The position numbers and the translations under genes were made by a program. This document shows positions 1 through 43,608 of a stretch of 53,352 nucleotides of DNA, one piece after another. Origin of the DNA: a virus (lineage: Duplodnaviria; Caudoviricetes); IMG/VR virus record IMGVR_UViG_3300024518_002533, positions 1 through 53,352 of that record. One strand, given 5' to 3'. The notes below the pieces were generated by a model. That model did not search any database. It was not told the origin of the DNA and worked only from the letters and a program-made list of their open reading frames with translations. The number at the start of each line of letters is the position of its first letter. The first letter of the stretch is position 1.

Positions 1-166
1 CCAGAGCCATAGCCATAGCCAGAGCCAGAGCCAGAGCCATCGCCAGAGCCATCGCCATAGCCATAGCCATAGCCAGAGCCAGAGCCAGAGCCAGAGCCAT
101 CGCCATCGCCAGAGCCAGAGCCAGAGCCATCGCCATAGCCAGAGCCATCGCCATCGCCATAGCCAT
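1..166. repeat. Hexamer tandem array (CCAGAG/CCATAG/CCATCG); 1-125 identical to 53208-53332 (terminal overlap, circular genome)
   Basis: Unit-by-unit comparison of the two ends: 20 units plus 5 nt match, then the ends diverge. Confidence 0.9.
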
Positions 167-179
167 CAATTAGTTCCAT
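1..179 (-). CDS. Gly-rich (G-S/G-Y/G-D)n repeat protein, 5' part; continues across the circular junction
   Basis: ATG at 179 overlaps the end of the upstream gene. It reads MELIDGYGDGDGSGYGDGSG..., built from GGC-TCT/TAT/GAT dicodons. Not in the ORF track because it crosses the contig end. Confidence 0.75.
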   Translation of the reverse strand, partial: MELIDGYGDGDGSGYGDGSGSGSGDGDGSGSGSGSGYGYGYGDGSGDGSGSGSGYGYGS

Positions 180-492
180 GTGATTGTTTCCCCTCGATCG
201 ATTCTCGTGCAGCATCACTACAGCACGTAGTTGAGTACGCCTCTATGATCGTTTTTGTAGACACAGCTGGCGACAACTTCGAATCTTCGGATACTCCAGA
301 ATTCGCAACGCCTTCGTACCAGGCTTGTGTTTCGTCAAGCGGCTTGTGGTGCCAGATACGGCGCACACTTCGCAACTTAATACCGTCCTTTGTTGCCGCT
401 ACCACATACCCAGCGTTGATGCCTTCGTTTCTAGATCGCACTATCACGTATTCGTTTTTATTGGCGAATACGTTTTGTAGTTCTGTGTTCAT
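166..492 (-). CDS. DUF6948-like small phage protein
   Basis: Motif YVIVRSRNEGINAG...RRIW...GV...CS..ARESI. This family is typically followed by a Gly-repeat ORF in phages. SD AAGGA lies before the ATG at 492. Confidence 0.7.
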   Translation of the reverse strand: MNTELQNVFANKNEYVIVRSRNEGINAGYVVAATKDGIKLRSVRRIWHHKPLDETQAWYEGVANSGVSEDSKLSPAVSTKTIIEAYSTTCCSDAARESIEGKQSHGTN

Positions 493-530
493 TTTGGTTT
501 CCTTGTTCGTTTGAAAGTGAAAAGTTAAAA

Positions 531-776
531 GCACCCGGCTGGAGTCGAACCAGCAACTTCGTTACCACAGCAAGGATTCTCCCGATTTACCGGGCTGGAA
601 TGCAGAGTAGTGGGGTCTCCAGGACTCATTCGGAGTTTAATTGTCGGCGAGTAACCAAGCCACACGATCGTCCAGGTGTTGAGAACCCGCTGGTAATACA
701 GGGGACGGCAAAACATTTTTCCCAAACGAAACGCTGCTGGGCTACCGCAAGCGTTTACCAATTTCGCCACGGATGC
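531..776 (-). ncRNA. tRNA-like RNA with a ~190-nt structured insert replacing the anticodon arm
   Basis: 7-bp acceptor stem GCATCCG/CGGGTGC; tRNA-Leu-type D arm TGGCGAAATTGGTAAACGC; perfect T arm GCTGG-TTCGACT-CCAGC. Intergenic, starting 2 nt after the RecT stop. Confidence 0.75.
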
Positions 777-778
777 AA

Positions 779-1882
779 CTACTGTCCTACGTCGTCTTTT
801 GTTTCGAACAGATTACCTCCTTCGGCTGACTGTTTCGTTTCGAGCGCGTCGCGGAGCGGCACGGCTATTTCGCACAACTCTTTCTCTAGGTCTGGTTCCT
901 TGGCGATCGCCGCATTCAGGATTGAGTCGACTTCAGCTGGGTCGGTTGCATCGCTGACGAATTCCCGGAACTCTTGCAGGTGCGATACGACCGCTGGCGT
1001 CTGGTGGCTGACCGCGTCAACCTCCTCCGCTGCCTCGGTCGCGGCTGCCGCTGGTTCCGCTGGTTCCGCTGGTTCCGCTTCCTGCCTCTTGCGTTCCTTG
1101 CGGCTGCCGCTGGTGGTGGCGATTAACTTCTTGACGTCTCCAAACTGTACGCGGTTCGGGTCGTTTCCTAGTGCCTTATCTTCCGCTTCGATAAGCGTTT
1201 GAAGGTCGCGGTTAACTCCCGCGTCGATGGTCACCACTCGCCTAGCGTATCCGTTACGCCATAGCGTTTTGATTGCTTGCTCTTTGGGCCATTTGTTCCA
1301 GACCTTAGCGGTTTGCGCACAAGCCTTCGCTTTCTTGATGGTCTCGAGCGTCACGAAATGGAACTTCTGCGGCCGGCCGTCGCGGTAGGTGATGCGCAGA
1401 TATCCGCCCTTTAGGTTGCTTAGGTCTTGCTCTACTTCACGATCTACGAACGGGTCGAAGTCGTGCCCGAATGAACCGTCGCTGTGCCGCTTGTAGTTCT
1501 CACCAACGAACACCAACTCATGCTCGATATAGAACACGTTCGGGTGACGTTCCATCACGGCTTTTAGCCCTTGCCATTGCGGCATGACGTCCATTTCAAA
1601 GACGCCTGTTGGCTTGCCGTTGTCGCGAATCTCGCGAGGTATCAACGCGACGTGTCCGAGCGTCGGCAACAGGTTCAACGCCGCGCAAACGTGCGCCGCT
1701 TTGAACTTACTGATGTCCGTGCATCCCTCTAGCTCTGGTTTCATGCAAGCGATTGCAAACTGAGACACAAATTCTTCTTCGTCAATCCATCCGCTGAGCG
1801 CTTTCGATACTCGGTTTTGAATCGTCGGATTATCCAACCAACCTGAAAACTTATTCTGCTTTGCTACTACTGCCGTACTCAT
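779..1882 (-). CDS. recT: RecT-family single-strand annealing recombinase
   Basis: Motifs LNLLPTLGHVALIPR, PQWQGL, W.KWP.EQAIKTLWR; acidic C-terminal tail; adjacent to an exonuclease. Confidence 0.85.
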   Translation of the reverse strand: MSTAVVAKQNKFSGWLDNPTIQNRVSKALSGWIDEEEFVSQFAIACMKPELEGCTDISKFKAAHVCAALNLLPTLGHVALIPREIRDNGKPTGVFEMDVMPQWQGLKAVMERHPNVFYIEHELVFVGENYKRHSDGSFGHDFDPFVDREVEQDLSNLKGGYLRITYRDGRPQKFHFVTLETIKKAKACAQTAKVWNKWPKEQAIKTLWRNGYARRVVTIDAGVNRDLQTLIEAEDKALGNDPNRVQFGDVKKLIATTSGSRKERKRQEAEPAEPAEPAAAATEAAEEVDAVSHQTPAVVSHLQEFREFVSDATDPAEVDSILNAAIAKEPDLEKELCEIAVPLRDALETKQSAEGGNLFETKDDVGQ

Positions 1883-1973
1883 CTTTTTACCTTTCTGTTG
1901 TTCCAAAAACACTGGCTGCGGTTGCCTCCGCAACCAGCGCGTAGCCCGTCAACAAGACGAGCCGACCTAACGT

Positions 1974-2219
1974 TCACGTTCCATCGCCGATTCGAATGGA
2001 CTCGCCTATCCCAAGACGTTCTGCTAATTCCATCTGCTCAGGCGTGATACTTCCACTTCCGAGAAGCTCAACGACACGATTAACTAATGCTGGCGGGTCG
2101 TGATTATGCTCAATTGGTGCCTGCGATACAGTTCCGCATCGTGGACACCAGAACCACGGTTCGATTCCGCCGTTTAAGTTTTGCATTGTGTGGTCGCATG
2201 TTGGACAAGCCATTTTCAA
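1974..2219 (-). CDS. Small zinc-ribbon protein
   Basis: CPTC...CPRC motifs; start overlaps the upstream stop. Confidence 0.6.
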   Translation of the reverse strand: MKMACPTCDHTMQNLNGGIEPWFWCPRCGTVSQAPIEHNHDPPALVNRVVELLGSGSITPEQMELAERLGIGESIRIGDGT

Positions 2220-3256
2220 ACCTCGTACTGACGGTCACGGTTGATGTATGCCGGCATGGATAGTGTAACCATTTCGGCGTCCTCTTCGTCACCCCACTCG
2301 AAGTTTTTTATCTGCTGCAACACCTCGTCGAGCCGATCGTCGCCCCACTGCATCCAAGTTTCTGGAACGTCATAGGGTCGAATGCGATACGAGCCAGTGT
2401 TTTCGATGGCACAAACCGCCGTTGTGTAGTGTCCGCTTCCCTCGCGATTCGCTCGAAATCCTCGACGATAAACCGCTAACTGTAGGGCGTAGTCTCCGTT
2501 GTGCATCTCGTCGCTAAACCGCTTCGGTTTTACATACCGCGTCGTTTTCCAGTCGACGATTCGGTGGTCTTCGTTGTCGATACAATCCAGCTTGCAACGC
2601 ATCGGCAAGCTTGTTTTTTCGTCCACCCAATCGAAGTAAACCTCTTTCTCCTCCGACTTCAGCCACGCGTTAGCCTCGCTGTTTTTTAGTAGCTGGTTGT
2701 AGACGTGCGCGTACGTGTTGAATTCTTCACTGGTGAACGCAATTTTGTCGCCATGTTGCGACTTCCAATCGACGTAATTTGAGATTTTGTCGCGCGTTCC
2801 AGCTGGAACTATTTTTCCTACCTGCTGTTTCTTCCACACTTGGTACGCCTTGCGACCTCGGCGCCCTTCGAACGTGCCGTCATCGTTGTAGGCCGACAGC
2901 AATTCGGGCGGTGCGTTTTTCGGCGTAGGTTCCTCCACCCAGCTTGCGGACTCGGCTATTTTGTCGTCGCTGAATGTTTCGAAGTCTTCGCCTACCTCAA
3001 CGGTGATATGCTGAGGACCGCCAAGCTCGAGCATGAAATGTACGTAGCTTCCGAATATTATTGCTGGCGTAGGTTTTTCCGCTTCCCAGTCTTTTGCCAC
3101 GAACCGGTGATACCACTTAGTTCTATCGTCAATGAAAACCTTAATTTGCGATGCAGAAAAAGACTCGAGCGCGTGATAGCGTTTGTTGTCTTCGATTGCG
3201 TCCATTAGTCGAGTCTGTCTGATAGTGCCAGTAAAATTTATATCGGTATTCAGCAT
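2216..3256 (-). CDS. PD-(D/E)XK exonuclease, ExoVIII/RecE C-terminal-like (DUF3799 type)
   Basis: YHA...SASQIK, FGS.VH...LE, RCKLD, IVDWKTT, YALQLAVY; paired with RecT. Confidence 0.85.
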   Translation of the reverse strand: MLNTDINFTGTIRQTRLMDAIEDNKRYHALESFSASQIKVFIDDRTKWYHRFVAKDWEAEKPTPAIIFGSYVHFMLELGGPQHITVEVGEDFETFSDDKIAESASWVEEPTPKNAPPELLSAYNDDGTFEGRRGRKAYQVWKKQQVGKIVPAGTRDKISNYVDWKSQHGDKIAFTSEEFNTYAHVYNQLLKNSEANAWLKSEEKEVYFDWVDEKTSLPMRCKLDCIDNEDHRIVDWKTTRYVKPKRFSDEMHNGDYALQLAVYRRGFRANREGSGHYTTAVCAIENTGSYRIRPYDVPETWMQWGDDRLDEVLQQIKNFEWGDEEDAEMVTLSMPAYINRDRQYEV

Positions 3257-8363: not shown

Positions 8364-8746
8364 GATTTACCTACGTGCGGGAGATCCTTTGGTGCGCCCT
8401 TGCCGATACGCTCTGCAAACTTCGCCCACTCGTTAGTTAGGTTTGAATAGGACAAATAAACATCAAGCGGAGCATTCAGGAATGATCCGGAACTACGAAC
8501 CGATTCCTTTGGAACTTCGAACTTTTCACAGAAACTATCGATGCGTGCTTCTTCGTCTCGAATCACGGTGAATGTCGTGTAAGCTTCCCAAAACTGTTCG
8601 TATTCCAGACGAGCCTTGGATGCCGAAATGTGCTTGGTGTCTTGGTCGATGGACCACCAATCCTTACCTACAAGTGCAACCTCAATAGACGTTCCGGCGG
8701 TCCTCGGGATGTGTACGAAAATAACCTTATGCACGTGTGAAATCAT
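8360..8746 (-). CDS. Sulfotransferase family 2-like protein (short)
   Basis: PAPS-binding motif IFVHIPRTAGTSIE, then KH and FTVIR. Confidence 0.75.
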   Translation of the reverse strand: MISHVHKVIFVHIPRTAGTSIEVALVGKDWWSIDQDTKHISASKARLEYEQFWEAYTTFTVIRDEEARIDSFCEKFEVPKESVRSSGSFLNAPLDVYLSYSNLTNEWAKFAERIGKGAPKDLPHVGKS

Positions 8747-9900
8747 ATCGTTTCGATCGCTCCATTGCGGGATATATCCAGCCATTCTTGGCAGCACTGG
8801 TAATAGAATGACTCCCATCTCCCGACCATTGCGGACGCGGAGAAATGTCGTCGCGAGATTACCGCCGCGCGCCGTACAATCTCAACCGATGCATCGCTTG
8901 TAGTGGCAAGTTGAATCGACTTTGCTAGATGCTCTGGCTTTGGCGGGCAATCTGTGTGCCACGCCGCCGGTTCGCCCCCAAAGTAAACCGTCTCGACTTC
9001 TTTCAGCGTATTGAACTCGGAACAAACCAGCGGAACGCCAGCGTGAAACGCCTCAATCATTACCAGCGGAAACGCCTCGCTACTGCTTGGGATTGCGACG
9101 ACGTCCGAAGCGGCGTAGACGTCGCCCAGCGCCTGCAATTGCGGAAGTGGAAAGAACACCCGCCCCGGCGTCTCCTCTGCCATAACTCGCAGGTCCCTGG
9201 CTTGGTCGCCCCAACCGTAGATGACCGCAACGTAATCCTGCGGCAAGTATCGCATTGCCTTTACCAGCAGATCGGCGCCCTTGCCTTCGAAGAGTCGCCC
9301 GACGTAAAGAACCACCTTCTTATCGTTCGGGATTCCCCATAGATTTCGTTGGTGGTCACGACCGAAGCAAACACACGTTCGCTCGGTGTCCGCACCGTTG
9401 TGAATGACGTGAATTTTGCTCGACTTGCGCACGCGTTCAGAGAATGAAAGAACTGCCGATTCACTAACCGCAACGTGGTAATGGGCTAGGCTTTCGCCGC
9501 GGTCTTGCGTCCATTTCCAAGTCCATTCGTTCGCCTTTTCCATTCCGCTAGCATGCGTCACGTGGACTACGGGAACTTTCAACGCGTCGAAGTTCATTGG
9601 ACCGAAACCCCAGTACATAATCAGATCGAACCGTAGCCCTCTAGCCACTTGCTCGTGAACAGCCCGAACTATCGCATTATCGTGGCTTTCATCTTCTTCT
9701 CGCTTTGCCTGGCAGACTGGAACGCCGCCCAATTGCGAAGACAGACGAGGGGCGCCGTCCAGCGTGATAATGCCGGCATACTTCACGCGCGAGGCATGTC
9801 GCACGAGTGTAGTCAGATGTTGCTCGGCTCCGCCTGGAGCTAGACCTGGAGTCAGCGCGAGAACTCGTAGCGTAGGCTCGTAGAATTGAACGCTCTGCAT
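8743..9900 (-). CDS. Glycosyltransferase family 4
   Basis: GGAE, AVSES, IHNG, YVGRL..GKG, SSSEAFPLVMIEA..AGVP. Confidence 0.9.
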   Translation of the reverse strand: MQSVQFYEPTLRVLALTPGLAPGGAEQHLTTLVRHASRVKYAGIITLDGAPRLSSQLGGVPVCQAKREEDESHDNAIVRAVHEQVARGLRFDLIMYWGFGPMNFDALKVPVVHVTHASGMEKANEWTWKWTQDRGESLAHYHVAVSESAVLSFSERVRKSSKIHVIHNGADTERTCVCFGRDHQRNLWGIPNDKKVVLYVGRLFEGKGADLLVKAMRYLPQDYVAVIYGWGDQARDLRVMAEETPGRVFFPLPQLQALGDVYAASDVVAIPSSSEAFPLVMIEAFHAGVPLVCSEFNTLKEVETVYFGGEPAAWHTDCPPKPEHLAKSIQLATTSDASVEIVRRAAVISRRHFSASAMVGRWESFYYQCCQEWLDISRNGAIETI

Positions 9901-9951
9901 GTTGTTTTCCTTGTTCGAAAACAACATTATAGACACCACCGCTGCGGTTAC

Positions 9952-12603
9952 CTATGGACCATAACCGGAATCTACCTCTGGTTCATCCCATGGGTCGTTA
10001 AGATGAATCGGTATGTCTGGCTTGGGCGGTTCCGGTTTCACCACGTTTGGATCGGTTATCGGCGTGGTGTTCGGTGGTTGCGATTTTATAAAGCAGGGAT
10101 CGCTCCATGGGTCGTCCAGTGGATGGACTCTGCAATGGTCGACCGGGTCGAAGTCTGGCGGTACTCCAATGTCTGGCGGGTCGTCTGGTTCAGGATCCGG
10201 TAACCCTGGGTCACCATCTGGATCTGGACCGCCTGGACCGTCTGGACCGTCTGGACCGTCTGGACCTCCGGGTCCACCGGGACTCGGGATACCGCCGCCG
10301 CCCTCGCTGTCAGTGGAGCCACATGGATTCCAATGAAAACCCGGAACGATAGCGGGACCGGGGAACGTTCTATTTGTGGGCAGCCGCCCGTCTGGGTGCT
10401 CAATCAACAGCCCGTTTCTGAAGACCCACTGAACGCAATCGCTCGGCGCCCCTGGCTCCGTCTCTGGATATTCGCCTTCCGTCGGCGCGCAAGGATCCTC
10501 GCCTGGACCGTGTGGTGTTCCGTAGTCCTCGCAGTTTTCCATCCATTCACAGAAGTATGGAAACAGATTGCGGCATAGTAAACGCTGGAATTCTTCGTCA
10601 CGCTCTTCATTTGTAAGGCATCGCTGGACCTTCGGCGATACGTCCACGCCTGGACCGAACCATCCTAGCTTTGCTGCGTTTGGTCCCCGTCGCTCCGCAA
10701 TCACGTATTTGTGTGACCGTCCTGGATCGGGGGGAAGCACGATATGGGCGCCACCGTCCGTGAGACTCGATTGCGGGAATGAGCTAGCGCCAAACTGGAT
10801 TTGTCCATGCAGTAGGTGAACGGCTGATGTACGCGGGATCGTCGACCATTTTAGCTGCCGGCCGCTCTGCGTATTCAAGACTGTGTTTACTGGTCCTGGC
10901 GTAAAGTCAATACCAATCGAGGTTCCAGCGAGACGCAATAGCCGAAGCATGCCGCCCTTGTTGACTACGATCAGCGATGGGTCTTTTGCTTCGTTGATTG
11001 TGCGTCCGCTGACACATCGCGCCGCCCAGTCAGCGAAGTCGGCCACGCCTGGTACTCCGCCGCCGCCTGACGTCCCACCGATCGCGACGATGACCCACAT
11101 ACCGCCTTTGCCCAGTTGGTAATTCCACTGGCAGTAGCAAACCTTTCCAGGTTTGATGGGTCCACCCGTGCCGTTCATGGCTAGCTGCTGGCGCTCCGGA
11201 AGCCAGTTAACCTGCGTACCGATGACAGCACCCGAGCGCGGATTGATATACACCATCGAATCGGCGTTGATTTCTCCCGTGTCTTCGTTTTGGTCGGCCT
11301 TGTTGACCGGTCTGTTTATCGTCGCGTGGACGAATCGCGAGTAGGGCGCCCAGTCCAGCGTATTCGGCGGTCCTGGTTTGAACACGGTTCCAGGTTGATA
11401 ATCGGCGTCGACTTCGACACTAGAAATCGTGGTAGTCATTCCGTCAGCAGTTCCCCGGTTGCGGTAGGTGACGGATCCCCATCGCGCCGACACCTGCACA
11501 CCAACCAGCCCCGCCAGCGTGTACCCCTGCGCTCTCGCCCGCATCAACTCCATGTCGAAGTATCTTCGCGCGTATCGCTTCATCATGGCGTGCAGCTGAG
11601 ATTGATTGACGATTGCGCCTTTGTCGTCACGTATCGCAAACGTCGGGCACCAGACCACTGAACGCCCCTCAAGATGCGCCGCTATCTGCACGCTCGGAAC
11701 CTCTTCGTGCGTGGTCGTACGCTTCGGTTGCCATTCGGTGGTCGAATAGTCCTGCTTATAGACCGGCTTCATACGGTGGACGTCGCCCGGCGTAACGGAT
11801 CGCGTGTCTGGGTGTCGATGCCATTGGTAGTCTCGGTTTTGGCATGCAACAACCACCGTGCGAGGTACAACCGGACGCTGTAGTAAAAACTTACCATCGA
11901 CGTTTAGCGGTGAGGGTAGAGGCGTCGTAATGTTTTCCCATTGGAACACCTCAGCGCGACCGGTGGTATCCAAACGCAAGGACCATCCAACCGTATTCAG
12001 CACGTGCCAGAGTGCATCCCACGCATTGACGCCATGAAACGCGACGTCCAAAAAATCCTCATCTACCACATTCGCGTGGAATCGCAGAGGTCCGCCGAAC
12101 AGACCTTCCAGCGGATCGAACAACGCGCTACAGATTGCCTTGGCTCGCATCGTCGTATCGTTAGCTGGTTCACTTCCGCCTACGCTCGCCTCCGTGAACG
12201 CTCGGCGGTTGAACGTCTCGTCCACGTACGCTAAATGAGCTTTGCTCCGTGCGTCTGCGATCGTGACTAAATATGGGGTCTGTGCGTCGGTAATGAAATC
12301 GACCGCGAACGGAAAGACGGCTTGCGTGTCGATTACCGATAGATTGACAACCTTAAACGTACGGTTAGGGAGATCGCTAATTTCTAGAACATGCTGGTTC
12401 AGCTGCGGATTCGGTAGCGTCCCTATGTGCTGCTTGGTCATTAGAATATGACCAATTGACGGTTCGCGCCCGCGGTTGTTCGTCCATCGGTTCGCCCGCT
12501 TCAGAAGCGGCGTAACCTCGATGTCGTATTCGTCGAGCTGGCGCAATAAGTCGTCCGGCTCTAAAACCGGTCTATTTGCAAATTGCCATTTCAGAACCGA
12601 CAT
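9952..12603 (-). CDS. Large tail/baseplate-hub-like structural protein with Gly-Pro-Asp collagen-like and Pro-rich C-terminus
   Basis: 883 aa at the end of the morphogenesis operon; (GPD)n encoded by CTGGACCGT repeats at about 10224-10268. Confidence 0.5.
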   Translation of the reverse strand: MSVLKWQFANRPVLEPDDLLRQLDEYDIEVTPLLKRANRWTNNRGREPSIGHILMTKQHIGTLPNPQLNQHVLEISDLPNRTFKVVNLSVIDTQAVFPFAVDFITDAQTPYLVTIADARSKAHLAYVDETFNRRAFTEASVGGSEPANDTTMRAKAICSALFDPLEGLFGGPLRFHANVVDEDFLDVAFHGVNAWDALWHVLNTVGWSLRLDTTGRAEVFQWENITTPLPSPLNVDGKFLLQRPVVPRTVVVACQNRDYQWHRHPDTRSVTPGDVHRMKPVYKQDYSTTEWQPKRTTTHEEVPSVQIAAHLEGRSVVWCPTFAIRDDKGAIVNQSQLHAMMKRYARRYFDMELMRARAQGYTLAGLVGVQVSARWGSVTYRNRGTADGMTTTISSVEVDADYQPGTVFKPGPPNTLDWAPYSRFVHATINRPVNKADQNEDTGEINADSMVYINPRSGAVIGTQVNWLPERQQLAMNGTGGPIKPGKVCYCQWNYQLGKGGMWVIVAIGGTSGGGGVPGVADFADWAARCVSGRTINEAKDPSLIVVNKGGMLRLLRLAGTSIGIDFTPGPVNTVLNTQSGRQLKWSTIPRTSAVHLLHGQIQFGASSFPQSSLTDGGAHIVLPPDPGRSHKYVIAERRGPNAAKLGWFGPGVDVSPKVQRCLTNEERDEEFQRLLCRNLFPYFCEWMENCEDYGTPHGPGEDPCAPTEGEYPETEPGAPSDCVQWVFRNGLLIEHPDGRLPTNRTFPGPAIVPGFHWNPCGSTDSEGGGGIPSPGGPGGPDGPDGPDGPGGPDPDGDPGLPDPEPDDPPDIGVPPDFDPVDHCRVHPLDDPWSDPCFIKSQPPNTTPITDPNVVKPEPPKPDIPIHLNDPWDEPEVDSGYGP

Positions 12604-13870
12604 GTGGAGAACTCCAGGGGAATTGTTGCGACAATCTTAGCTGATTCCCCTGGTTTGGGTCGCGGTTCTTCTTGACCGCTGCTTTCGCGCCGGCTGCTAC
12701 TTCATCAGGCAATTGCGAGCCATCGGCGGTCATCGGGTCTGGACCGTGGCCGGCGTCATCTTCCTCGATCAACCCGAACGGCACAATCTCGTAGTCGGTG
12801 GATAGCCCTCGCATGCGGCATAGCGGCTGGAATATCTGCCGGTCTGCATCGTGAATCAGCCAATAGACGACTTGCGTCATAATCGCCCGTACGGCGGTCT
12901 CGGGAATCTTCCGACCACTGAATCCTGAACCGGTTTCCGCTGCCTGGAATACTTCTTCAGACAATCCAAGCCCCTCGGTCATCTCGCGCCGAAGATTCTT
13001 GATGTATTCGATGACTTCCGCCGAACCCGTGACGGCTGGGACAGCTTCTACGTCCCATTTGTATTTATTGCTTACTGGATCAACATCACTCGGCAATGTG
13101 AACACGGCTCCGCTTCGGTGGTTTTCAATCGCTTTCTTGGCCACAGTCCTCGCGTTTCTCATCATTCCGGTTTCGGGATCCTTAACCATTTCGTTGGGGT
13201 GTCGGATGATGTGCCCCTGGAATGCGTACTTGTAGAAGAAGACTCGCCGCATGTCCATCGCGCCGAATTCATCGTATAGCTCGTTCCATGGAATGTAGGC
13301 GCTCTCGTACTTGCTGCGCCCCCACCATGGGTGATAGTCGCGACGGTGGACCGTCCAGAAAGCCTGATGACCGCCTAGATATCTCTTCTGCGCGTTGTGC
13401 TGCAGCTCCAGACCAATCAGGCGCCCGGCCATCGTTACCGGGCGCATGTCCTGCGCTCGGAACTTCTGAAAGTGTGAGAATTCCAAGCCGTCGTCGGTGT
13501 GTTCGTAGATCGTCTCTCCGCCTGCCCAGCCCCAATCCATGCAATCCATCATGTGCGGCGCACCGCCAACCCAGAACTTTTCTAGCTGCTTCATCACGAA
13601 TTGTTTTGTTTCGCTCGGACGGTCAATTGGGCAACCGTCGTTGATCCAAAACTTAGGTAGGCTCGTCGCCATGCCTTTTAAGACGTCCATGCCCAGCGAT
13701 AATCTAGGCTCGCGTTGCATTGCTGGTACGTGCGTAAATCGGTGGAACGGAGGGTTGCGCCGCCAGTCATACCACCACTGCGACAAAATGGAAGTTTGGT
13801 AAGGCTCGTAATCGACAATCGACTGCGTGGTTCTATTAACCTGCTGCTGTTTTCGCTTGTTGAGCAACAC
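12572..13870 (-). CDS. Portal protein (Mu gp29/DUF935-like)
   Basis: 432 aa; WGW...E..Y, PWWGRSKYESAYIPW, F..KYA, DRQIFQPL...; SD GGAGGAG before a GTG start. Confidence 0.75.
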   Translation of the reverse strand: MLLNKRKQQQVNRTTQSIVDYEPYQTSILSQWWYDWRRNPPFHRFTHVPAMQREPRLSLGMDVLKGMATSLPKFWINDGCPIDRPSETKQFVMKQLEKFWVGGAPHMMDCMDWGWAGGETIYEHTDDGLEFSHFQKFRAQDMRPVTMAGRLIGLELQHNAQKRYLGGHQAFWTVHRRDYHPWWGRSKYESAYIPWNELYDEFGAMDMRRVFFYKYAFQGHIIRHPNEMVKDPETGMMRNARTVAKKAIENHRSGAVFTLPSDVDPVSNKYKWDVEAVPAVTGSAEVIEYIKNLRREMTEGLGLSEEVFQAAETGSGFSGRKIPETAVRAIMTQVVYWLIHDADRQIFQPLCRMRGLSTDYEIVPFGLIEEDDAGHGPDPMTADGSQLPDEVAAGAKAAVKKNRDPNQGNQLRLSQQFPWSSPHVGSEMAICK

Positions 13871-42275: not shown

Positions 42276-42977
42276 TTATCCGCGCACGAGGTTGGTCTGA
42301 GGATCAGAGTCTTTCGCGTCCTGGCCGCCACAAACCACATGAAAACCGACGCCGATGGTACGGCCGCCGGGCGTGCTGAAGTTCCGGTTGGTAGCGCGGC
42401 AATCGAAGCTGCCACCCGCCCACGACCCGCCACGCAACAAGCGGCGGTTCGTCTGAGGATCAGAGTCTTTCGTCCACTCCCACACATTGCCGTGCATATC
42501 GTACAGCCCGAACTTGTTGGGCCGCTTAGTCGCCACTGCTTGCACCTGACTAACGCCGTAGACGGCATACTCGCTGAGGTCCTTATCAGGGCAACAATAC
42601 CTACCCGCGCTTCCAGCTCGGCAAGCGTACTCCCACTGATCGCAGGTAGGCAGCGAGTACGAATAGAACTCGCAAAACGCAACCGCGTCAAAATACGTCA
42701 CGTTAGTGATCGGCAGATCGTCCGCGAGGTTGTCAAATCTGCGGAGCCGATCCCACTCGTGGCCAGACTCCTCCAAGAAAACGCGCCACTGTCCTACGGT
42801 GATCGCCGTTTCTGATATTCGGTAACCGTCAACGGTGATCTCATCGCCGTCTTCCGTCCCGACCGTACCGGGCTCGATCGCAATAAATGTAGGTGATTGC
42901 CTATCGACCAATTGTTTCTCGAGGCGAGCTTGTTCGGTTCGCAATTCCGCGATCCGTGTTCGAATGTCAGCTTTCAT
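42276..42977 (-). CDS. FGE-sulfatase (C-type lectin fold) domain protein
   Basis: ITVGQW..F, P.TNVT..DA..FC, LPT..QWEYACRAG, PNKFGLYDMHGNVWEW, RGGSW, GF.VV. Confidence 0.9.
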   Translation of the reverse strand: MKADIRTRIAELRTEQARLEKQLVDRQSPTFIAIEPGTVGTEDGDEITVDGYRISETAITVGQWRVFLEESGHEWDRLRRFDNLADDLPITNVTYFDAVAFCEFYSYSLPTCDQWEYACRAGSAGRYCCPDKDLSEYAVYGVSQVQAVATKRPNKFGLYDMHGNVWEWTKDSDPQTNRRLLRGGSWAGGSFDCRATNRNFSTPGGRTIGVGFHVVCGGQDAKDSDPQTNLVRG

Positions 42978-43608
42978 TGATTTTTCCATCTGGTTCCTGT
43001 TCGACTCCGAGGAATACATGTATCAGCCCCATTGCCTTCAGCTCTTCGACCACTTCGATGCATTCTTCCGACGATGTCTGCTCGCGGAATGCAACGGCGT
43101 CGACGGTGTCCGTCTCTACTGGTGACTCTTCATCGATTTGCGGTGATTCTGCGAGCTGATGGCGTGTTAGAAAGTAGTTTCGCTGCTCTAGCTGCGCGCT
43201 GCTCTTTTCCTTCTGCCAATTGTCCCGCATCAATCGAGCGTAGCTGTTCAAAGCGTTTAGCGTTGTCTCTGGTTTGATGCTCTCATATTTATTTGCGAGT
43301 GCGAGCATATCGAGAGGGACTTGCTTTGCAGCTCCGTCGCTTGGGACCCAGTCGGGGTGCTTTCGGCGTATCTGGTTTAGCATGCCGATATCGTGCGTCG
43401 ACTCAATAATGGGTCGTTCGTCACGTTGAGAAGAATTCGAAGAATTCGGAATCACGGCAGACTCGGCTGCTCTCGCGCGATTTCTCGCACGTCTTCTTCG
43501 GAGCTTCGTCTGCTGTGAAATCGATAACTCAGGTTTGCCGTTCGAACTAGCGTTTCCCGAGCTGGCTATAGCTTTCGGTTTTTTAGCGGGTTTTTCGTTG
43601 CTAGTCAA
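42967..43608 (-). CDS. Hypothetical protein, possible terminase small subunit
   Basis: Basic N-terminus, helical core, acidic tail; upstream of terL in the same transcription direction. No diagnostic motif. Confidence 0.35.
   Translation of the reverse strand: MTSNEKPAKKPKAIASSGNASSNGKPELSISQQTKLRRRRARNRARAAESAVIPNSSNSSQRDERPIIESTHDIGMLNQIRRKHPDWVPSDGAAKQVPLDMLALANKYESIKPETTLNALNSYARLMRDNWQKEKSSAQLEQRNYFLTRHQLAESPQIDEESPVETDTVDAVAFREQTSSEECIEVVEELKAMGLIHVFLGVEQEPDGKINES

Follow-up and report, generated by a model that had tools for sequence, protein, structure and literature searches.

The window analysed here is the linear virus record IMGVR_UViG_3300024518_002533 of IMG/VR, 53,352 bases in length and ~54% complete according to CheckV. 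Between its recT gene and the next gene, on the minus strand at positions 776 to 531, lies an element of 246 nucleotides (nt) with the shell of a leucine transfer RNA (tRNA-Leu): acceptor stem, D arm and T arm are in place, and 196 nt of other sequence (the cargo), without an anticodon arm, stand between the D arm and the T arm. We tentatively favour the view that it is a tRNA-Leu-derived, anticodon-less processing ('punctuation') element in the recombination operon of the phage, which would also yield a stable tRNA-like RNA. Judging from the sequences collected, the design of a Leu shell with no anticodon arm and a variable middle recurs in other phages. The copies that share the position after recT are two shells (E1 and E2) at the metagenomic locus L153 and one at locus L175. 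The shell of the window element consists of the following parts.

Positions 770-776, minus strand: 5' strand of the acceptor stem, GCATCCG, beginning 2 nt past the recT stop, with U at position -1.
Positions 751-769, minus strand: U8 and G9, followed by a Leu-type D arm (767-751), GCG/AAATTGGTAAA/CGC, with a 3-bp stem and G18G19 in the loop.
Positions 538-554, minus strand: T arm, GCTGG/TTCGACT/CCAGC, fitting the motif GGTTCRANYCC, with a pair probability of 1.0.
Positions 531-537, minus strand: 3' strand of the acceptor stem, CGGGTGC, pairing with 776-770.
Position 530, minus strand: discriminator position 73, U here and A in the three related shells (L153 E1, L153 E2 and L175).

All seven positions of the acceptor stem are paired, one of them as a U4-G69 wobble. 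The nucleotides of the tRNA elbow are all present (U8, A14, A15-U48, G18G19, T54-T55-C56 and A58), and the shell is that of a canonical type II tRNA-Leu, with a 7-bp acceptor, G18G19 in the D arm and a TTCRA loop in the T arm. The D-arm 20-mer GTGGCGAAATTGGTAAACGC occurs once in the window, against 0.01 occurrences expected with up to three mismatches allowed; in IMG/VR it stands at the head of at least 119 loci, which are mostly tRNA-Leu genes. Because the shell is exact at the canonical positions and the D-arm word lies far beyond chance, both ends of the element are, on sequence grounds, certain to derive from tRNA-Leu. A sequence-only reading, made before any database was searched, had described a tRNA frame with intact acceptor, D and T arms and no encoded CCA. 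Both descriptions stand: U73 is followed by a TTTAAC trailer. The leucine identity base of E. coli, A73, is not found, as window position 530 carries U. RNase P, the 3' trimming enzymes and the CCA-adding enzyme recognise the acceptor/T-arm stack and the elbow, not the anticodon.

No 5-bp anticodon stem with a 7-nt loop was found in the element, either directly or after one excision. Every single excision was rated for a 5-bp stem, a 7-nt loop, U33 and a purine at position 37. The best arm obtained in this way scores 9, compared with 11-13 for real tRNA-Leu genes in the same scan, and its score was equalled or exceeded in 88% of 300 cargo shuffles. The shells L153 E1, L153 E2 and L175 likewise gave no anticodon arm beyond shuffles. 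In its default mode, ARAGORN reports no gene for a tRNA or a transfer-messenger RNA (tmRNA) in the whole window. Rfam gives no match in the window at the gathering threshold and no meaningful one around the element at E<=10. For the tRNA family RF00005 (threshold 29 bits), four candidates were scored on the record, none at E<=10, and control genomes gave matches. The family RF00028 (Intron_gpI) gave nothing on the record at E<=10, and the same search was positive in 8 of 14 control genomes; the test for a group I intron rests on this family, and the bacterial-tRNA model of 10.1101/2020.01.27.920355 might be more sensitive. No group I insert bounded by U(-1) and omega-G, with exons rebuilding the anticodon loop, was recognised.

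A tmRNA also has a tRNA-like acceptor/T-arm domain around a long non-tRNA middle. However, it lacks a true D stem and carries G3-U70 (alanine), pseudoknots and a tag frame; in the window element the 3-70 pair is A-U, the D arm is genuine, and no tmRNA is detected by ARAGORN or Rfam. Tag frames in the element were read by eye, and none was convincing. A P3/P7-like pseudoknot (CGTCC/GGACG plus an 8-bp helix) was also considered and rejected: its ensemble probability is ~0, and about two such 8-bp matches are expected by chance per 246 nt (an estimate). On these tests, the element is neither a tRNA, nor an intron-bearing tRNA, nor a tmRNA. The sequence-only reading had come to the same view, that there is no canonical anticodon loop and that neither tmRNA nor a tRNA with a group I intron fits; its forecast that ARAGORN and Rfam would return no full match was correct.

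Compared with dinucleotide shuffles, neither the whole element (minimum free energy, MFE, z +0.26) nor the 196-nt cargo (z +0.37; +0.35 in a repeat computation) folds better than expected. With the shell constrained, the cargo divides into two parts.

Positions 647-748, minus strand: long irregular rod hairpin of ~100 nt (RNA positions 29-130), with the apical loop UAUUAC and no 7-nt anticodon loop.
Positions 555-646, minus strand: loose stretch of ~92 nt at the position of the variable arm (z +0.35 for 91 nt), with the weak hairpins CTCC/GGAG, CCCG-GTAAAT-CGGG and AAC-GAA-GTT.

The rod starts where the anticodon stem would and dominates the shell-constrained ensemble, with helix probabilities of 0.62-0.99. 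Folded alone, it has an MFE of -36.7 (z -2.10), and 10 of 200 shuffles fold equally well; the support for this modelled hairpin is marginal. The hairpins that the sequence-only reading had listed in the cargo exist as sequences, but most have pair probabilities near 0 when the shell is constrained: 0.002 for CCCA/TGGG, 0.0 for CGTCC/GGACG, 0.002 for the alternative 8-bp pairing GGGTTCTC/GAGAATCC, 0.08-0.09 for the AAC/GTT pairs of the proposed small variable stem, 0.34 for CTCC/GGAG and 0.59 for CCCG/CGGG. Five of the seven listed pairings thus lie at 0 to 0.09 and two at 0.34 and 0.59; neither the 8-bp pairing nor the variable stem is confirmed. The suggestion of a structured, conserved regulatory or decoy cargo is not supported either, since the cargo has no homologue and no significant fold and is unrelated to the other cargos in 15 of 15 pairs. 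A decoy or mimic function of the cargo is pure conjecture.

The element lies on the coding strand, with the recT stop codon 2 nt upstream and the gene for a DUF6948 protein 38 nt downstream. The adjoining genes are arranged as follows.

Positions 779-1882, minus strand: recT (Pfam RecT, 63.6 bits), with its stop TAG at 781-779.
Positions 166-492, minus strand: DUF6948 gene, 108 amino acids (aa), with its ATG 38 nt past the end of the element.
Positions 2216-3256: PD-(D/E)XK exonuclease-like gene (Pfam scan), upstream of the element.

No promoter-like sites were found within window positions 1-2300, and in terminator prediction the T arm followed by UUUU amounts to a merely weak terminator-like site. 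The phage origin proposed from the letters alone is confirmed: the stretch is an IMG/VR virus record of a tailed phage, and it encodes a terminase large subunit, an E-type major capsid protein and a tail region, nearly all on the minus strand, in addition to the RecT and the exonuclease found by Pfam scans of the window's open reading frames (ORFs). The stretch belongs to a marine phage and is contained in five sequencing runs, all of seawater DNA. Contigs aligned from four of the five runs show zero variants, no joint and no end information. Those of two runs (X1 and X2) cover positions 300-1000 with zero differences; the record may itself derive from these two.

The closest RecT protein is 49% identical. 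A query with the RecT protein alone found no relative in IMG/VR, and a profile of 20 RecT relatives yielded 45 metagenome loci. ARAGORN finds no canonical tRNA in these 45 loci, yet at least four different tRNA-like elements that lack an anticodon are present there, a ratio not to be expected if ordinary tRNA genes had decayed at random. Furthermore, when IMG/VR was scanned with the 5' half (26 nt) of the L153 shells, four loci were obtained (L172, L173, L174 and L175), two of which (L173 and L174) are normal tRNA-Leu(UAA) genes. The shells and shell-like elements found near recT are these.

L153, positions 2459-3012: RecT (Pfam) stop, 11 nt, the 171-nt Leu shell E1, then the 125-nt E2 and possibly a less canonical E3 (~157 nt).
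L175, positions 10505-13426: YqaJ exonuclease, RecT, then a 145-nt anticodon-less Leu shell 54 nt past the RecT stop.
L135: perfect T arm within ~125 nt past the RecT stop, in a small acceptor-like fold (z -2.0).
L138 and L139: 105-nt shell ~1.3 kb upstream of recT (z -1.97).
L131 (1428-1502), L134 and L136 (1427-1501): mini element of ~70 nt, acceptor plus T arm, upstream of recT.

Shells E1 and E2 of L153 have near-identical halves of 26 nt and 24 nt around unrelated cargo, and no intact tRNA stands beside them. Left unconstrained, E1 forms an acceptor stem, a D arm, a T arm and, between these two arms, three inner arms (z -4.03 for the whole, -5.59 for the cargo). The L153 region has no match among cultured phages. 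The L175 shell was found by the shell pattern alone, independently of RecT, and ARAGORN calls no tRNA in its 14.5-kb locus. It shares the shell halves of L153 E1 and E2, despite the distant relationship of its RecT (A1 profile, E 1.5e-5). Among cultured phages, the best match to the L175 RecT is that of Edwardsiella phage Edno5, where recT is followed by neither a gap nor a tRNA. The L131 and L136 mini elements differ by one compensatory pair in the acceptor-like stem.

The window element, L153 E1 and E2, and L175 form a provisional group: all have a Leu D arm, a T arm and an acceptor stem, no anticodon arm, a position directly downstream of recT on the same strand, and U at position -1 (4 of 4 shells). 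Across six elements, every one of the 15 pairs of cargos is unrelated (z -1.6 to +1.4), which suggests that the shell is the constant part. The sequence-only reading had named a lack of conservation of the insert in homologues as grounds for giving up its proposal. Such a lack was found for the insert; for the shell, on the other hand, the same design recurs.

Shells of this kind are also found away from recT; none of the other loci with the D-arm word has a RecT. Among the 120 segments that contain this word (one of them from the window), 51 receive no tRNA call at the motif from ARAGORN in default mode. In 89 segments the word is accompanied by a matching T arm and acceptor, and 28 distinct ones of these measure at least 95 nt; the 245-nt row from L023 among these oversize elements is probably two neighbouring genes. 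Together with E1, E2 and L175, 31 oversize Leu-shell elements were folded, and 8 of the 31 have a cargo z <= -2. A near-identical AGTCAGG...CCTGACT shell of Leu type with unrelated middles is present in ten loci (L005, L008, L010, L012, L020, L023, L051, L066, L083 and L118); these genes total 70 to 121 nt. Tandem copies occur, and in most of the genes a normal anticodon loop is missing. The general plan, in which a constant Leu shell encloses a variable middle that is no anticodon arm, is thus common in viral metagenomes, and standard annotation does not see it.

Two further genes were observed in this collection. L041 (2917-3847, minus strand) has a 308-nt tRNA-Leu(UAA)-like gene with a 227-nt insert in the anticodon loop; excising the insert restores a perfect anticodon arm, Intron_gpI stays below its gathering score there, and the gene adjoins a ROOL RNA (340.8 bits). 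L010 (5938-6409) carries a full tmRNA gene (Rfam, 71.3 bits).

A processing element is favoured by the following considerations: the intact upper half of a tRNA without the decoding part, the position at a gene boundary with U at -1, the recurrence with unrelated cargo, and what is known of RNase P and of the t-elements of plant mitochondria. Since a few distant phages also have such shells after recT, a working tRNA is less likely than an RNA-processing signal or scaffold. The element would act through the tRNA upper half and not by decoding. It would be co-transcribed with the neighbouring genes. Host RNase P would cut between U(-1) and G1 (window 777/776), 2 nt past the recT stop, and host 3' nucleases, possibly followed by CCA addition, would trim after U73 (~530). 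This would free the downstream mRNA and release a stable RNA of ~246 nt. Selection would then act on the shell, and the 196-nt middle, with its rod of ~100 nt and its loose ~92 nt, would be free to vary.

Among the closest known counterparts are the t-elements. In the passages of PMC1920247 devoted to them, these non-canonical tRNA-like folds are cut at their ends by RNase P and RNase Z, which gives rise to the 3' and 5' ends of mRNAs, and they can persist as stable RNAs. Like the window element, they stand next to mRNAs and have a non-canonical cloverleaf in which T arm and acceptor stem are conserved (same passages); here too, the acceptor is stacked on a conserved T arm and the remainder is non-canonical. 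However, t-elements are ~70-75 nt long and organellar, and their ends were mapped experimentally. The window element measures 246 nt, belongs to a phage, has a perfect D arm and is known from sequence alone.

Several results weigh against this reading. A pure processing signal would not need 196 nt of cargo. No homologue was found by blastn of the element and the first 20 kb against 50,697 phage records, nor did the cargo match any of the 119 D-arm loci by blastn-short. In IMG/VR, three patterns that lay in the cargo or ran across shell and cargo had no match; one gapped shell pattern returned nothing from the JGI metagenomes, and the 26-nt 5' half of the element returned nothing from the GTDB genomes. 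The window element is a singleton; across phages, IMG/VR, JGI metagenomes and GTDB genomes, these searches found no homologue of its cargo. A query with the DUF6948 protein gave five loci, none with a tRNA-like element upstream. Of the 37 recT loci whose downstream sequence extends for 150 nt or more, only 2 have a shell directly downstream, and in most the next gene follows within 80 nt. On a RecT tree of 34 rows, which left out L142 as too short, the three RecT proteins with a downstream shell are scattered, requiring 3 changes, the same number as with shuffled labels. The 2 of 37 loci, the scattered tree and the DUF6948 loci without an element together indicate that the element occurs sporadically and is no constant part of the module. 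This implies either repeated gain at the recT boundary or frequent loss; neither a related cargo nor a single origin on the RecT tree points to common descent of the recT-adjacent shells. In addition, in each of L153 E1, E2 and L175 one acceptor position is mismatched against the canonical CGGGAGC, perhaps a sign of decay; the window element has no such mismatch. The adjacency of L153 and L135 to recT partly follows from the search itself, which was recT-based. Finally, among the sequencing runs searched, no RNA run is listed as containing the stretch.

Some of the same results are what would be expected of a dead tRNA-Leu, that is, a gene of the tRNA-Leu(UAA) type that lost its anticodon and variable arms to inserted or swapped foreign DNA, for example a homing mobile cassette, and whose halves are recent functionless remnants. 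We regard this as somewhat unlikely. The process itself is illustrated by L172 (130-740, minus strand), where two tRNA-Leu halves, identical to the intact L173 and L174 genes, enclose an ORF of 145 aa, whose homing-endonuclease/HNH matches stay below threshold, together with a second, complete tRNA-Leu(UAA). It looks as if a mobile cassette had entered the tRNA gene and brought its own replacement tRNA. A normal gene also exists: the sole IMG/VR match to its 26-nt 5' half is the phage tRNA-Leu(UAA) of L126, the closest normal gene found, with the same 5' acceptor strand and the same T loop. The cargo without a homologue, a significant fold or a relation to other cargos, the sporadic distribution on the RecT tree, the U73 in place of A73 and the single acceptor mismatches of the relatives all agree with a dead gene. 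On the other side, the window shell has no defect at ~50 positions, and its cargo contains neither an endonuclease ORF nor a replacement tRNA. Moreover, the absence of canonical tRNAs from 45 recT loci that hold several anticodon-less shells, and the two or three tandem shells of L153 with no intact tRNA and one strongly structured cargo, are difficult to explain by decay.

An unlikely alternative, put forward by the sequence-only reading, gives the weight to the cargo: it would be a functional regulatory, decoy or sponge RNA, which the shell merely excises and stabilises. In engineered tRNA scaffolds, the RNA is inserted in place of the anticodon stem-loop, and the chimera is processed and protected by host enzymes. 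The window element would be a natural counterpart of such a construct. In favour of this, 196 nt is much to keep in a tightly packed phage operon, and the ~100-nt rod (z -2.1) is placed exactly where an anticodon arm would stack. Among the relatives, the cargo of L153 E1 forms three clean arms, and the 8 of 31 oversize elements with a cargo z <= -2 also speak for it. The window cargo as a whole, however, folds no better than shuffles and shows no conservation, and no repeat of it or antisense target longer than 12 nt was found elsewhere in the window. It matches no Rfam family. No Ro/TROVE protein, RNA ligase, reverse transcriptase or other RNA-handling enzyme was found by Pfam among the 39 window ORFs scanned, in a record that is ~54% complete. 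The scaffold is therefore plausible for the class through L153 E1, and nothing supports it for the window copy. The likeness to the engineered scaffold is that of an RNA of interest inside a tRNA frame (PMC3753655); the difference is that the latter is man-made with an insert known to be functional, and in the window element nothing shows that the cargo matters.

The bacterial Y RNA YrlA offers another comparison. It has a tRNA-like module (T arm, D arm and acceptor-like stem) and a long helix, as the window element does, but it is permuted and its RNA ends lie in the long helix; the window element ends in the acceptor stem. There was no Rfam match to a Y RNA, and the 39 ORFs scanned contain no TROVE domain.

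A broader proposal, which we consider quite unlikely, is that of a phage class of anticodon-less tRNA-Leu scaffolds. These would have a constant shell competent for RNase P and for leucyl-tRNA synthetase (LeuRS) and an exchangeable middle, some of them standing as the last element of an exo-recT module. After release as stable RNAs, the A73 copies perhaps leucylated, they would serve as decoys for host defences that target tRNAs or as carriers of variable functional RNAs; the window element would be one member, and the AGTCAGG shells another branch. According to the passages of PMC9976931 on minimal substrates, E. coli LeuRS ignores the anticodon and variable arms, and a truncated tRNA-Leu can be charged if A73 and the contacts between D loop and T loop (A15-U48, G18G19 and U54-A58) are kept. 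The change from A73 to C73 abolishes leucine charging in E. coli (same passages). The window shell keeps these three contacts, but its U73 lies outside the variants covered by these passages; L153 E1, E2 and L175 have A73. Since LeuRS charges an armless tRNA-Leu with A73 and the elbow, these A73 relatives are candidates for leucylation. The U73 argues against leucylation of the window copy, which is probably not charged.

That a working tRNA-Leu is interrupted here by an unusually small or novel intron, self-splicing or removed by enzymes, is very unlikely. With introns allowed, ARAGORN calls a Leu(taa) with a 154-nt intron and a Tyr(gta) with a 152-nt intron, and L041 resembles such a gene. 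However, the two calls conflict, and both use a 5-position stem with one mismatch and two wobbles. A tRNA was also called for 661 artificial excisions, with more than 30 different 'anticodons'; the call therefore reflects the shell alone, and ARAGORN was rejected as an excision test. The strict excision score, no better than shuffles, and the Intron_gpI search with its positive controls argue against an intron as well. The implied length of ~150-175 nt is shorter than the Azoarcus group I intron, with its ~205 nt. Compared with tRNA genes that carry a group I intron (10.1101/2020.01.27.920355), the window element is also Leu-type with a long insert between D and T arms, but it has no Intron_gpI signal, no junction restores an anticodon loop, and the insert is too short.

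A role at the DNA level is equally improbable. At a module boundary, the tRNA halves would provide short arms of homology with which the adjacent RecT exchanges cassettes or modules between phages. This would account for the near-identical halves around unrelated cargo in L153, for the halves shared by L175 despite its distant RecT, and for the location of the elements at the edge of the exo-recT module. However, the window element shares only the generic Leu consensus with the others. The features kept at the RNA level (paired stems, U at -1 and elbow nucleotides) would be needless for a DNA arm.

It is very unlikely that the element encodes a small protein, with the tRNA likeness as a remnant, even if one frame (525-770, minus strand; 81 codons from GTG at 770 or 63 from ATG at 716) is open across it, L153 E2 also lies within a 66-aa ORF preceded by GAGG, and the codon score of 0.036 exceeds that of 95% of the windows read out of frame and is the same as for the real DUF6948 gene: among in-frame windows that score falls below the 5th percentile, the phage's genes have a different GC-by-codon-position pattern, a search of the 81-aa frame against 5.8 billion clustered proteins gave five candidates, none at E<=0.01, and no Pfam match, an open frame this long is expected by chance in ~7% of such stretches (a rough estimate), and L153 E1 and L175 have no such ORF. 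The frame is probably not a gene.

Other features of the window were recorded in passing. Positions 1-165 (minus strand) contain a tandem repeat encoding a Gly/Tyr/Asp/Ser-rich repeat peptide, which begins right past the DUF6948 gene and within which the record ends; a comparable short repeat peptide stands ahead of the DUF6948 gene of locus L125. A family 4 glycosyltransferase is encoded at 8743-9939 (minus strand), with a match to the 'GT4 in conflict systems' model among its hits, and an FGE-sulfatase-type enzyme at 42276-43019 (minus strand). A second GGTTCGATTCC T-loop motif (51551-51561) is located within 51538-51640 (minus strand), in a gap of ~350 nt just upstream of a gene start. As a tRNA-like structure this site was rejected: a 6-bp acceptor-like partner exists, but the fold is unsupported (z -0.45).

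The element is best filed, on the features described, as a new phage variant of tRNA-like processing or scaffold elements; no known RNA family fits. Targeted full-text literature searches found no description of tRNA punctuation in phage recombination operons or of such phage elements. Standard tRNA finders and Rfam miss these elements, so that a sizeable population of tRNA-like genes would be unannotated in viral metagenomes. If the element is instead a disrupted gene, it documents tRNA genes as insertion targets in phages, like L172. tRNA punctuation is known from organelles, and the packaging of RNAs in tRNAs from engineered tRNA scaffolds. If the shell is functional, tRNA mimicry would serve phages for the punctuation of operons or the packaging of RNAs, in addition to decoding.

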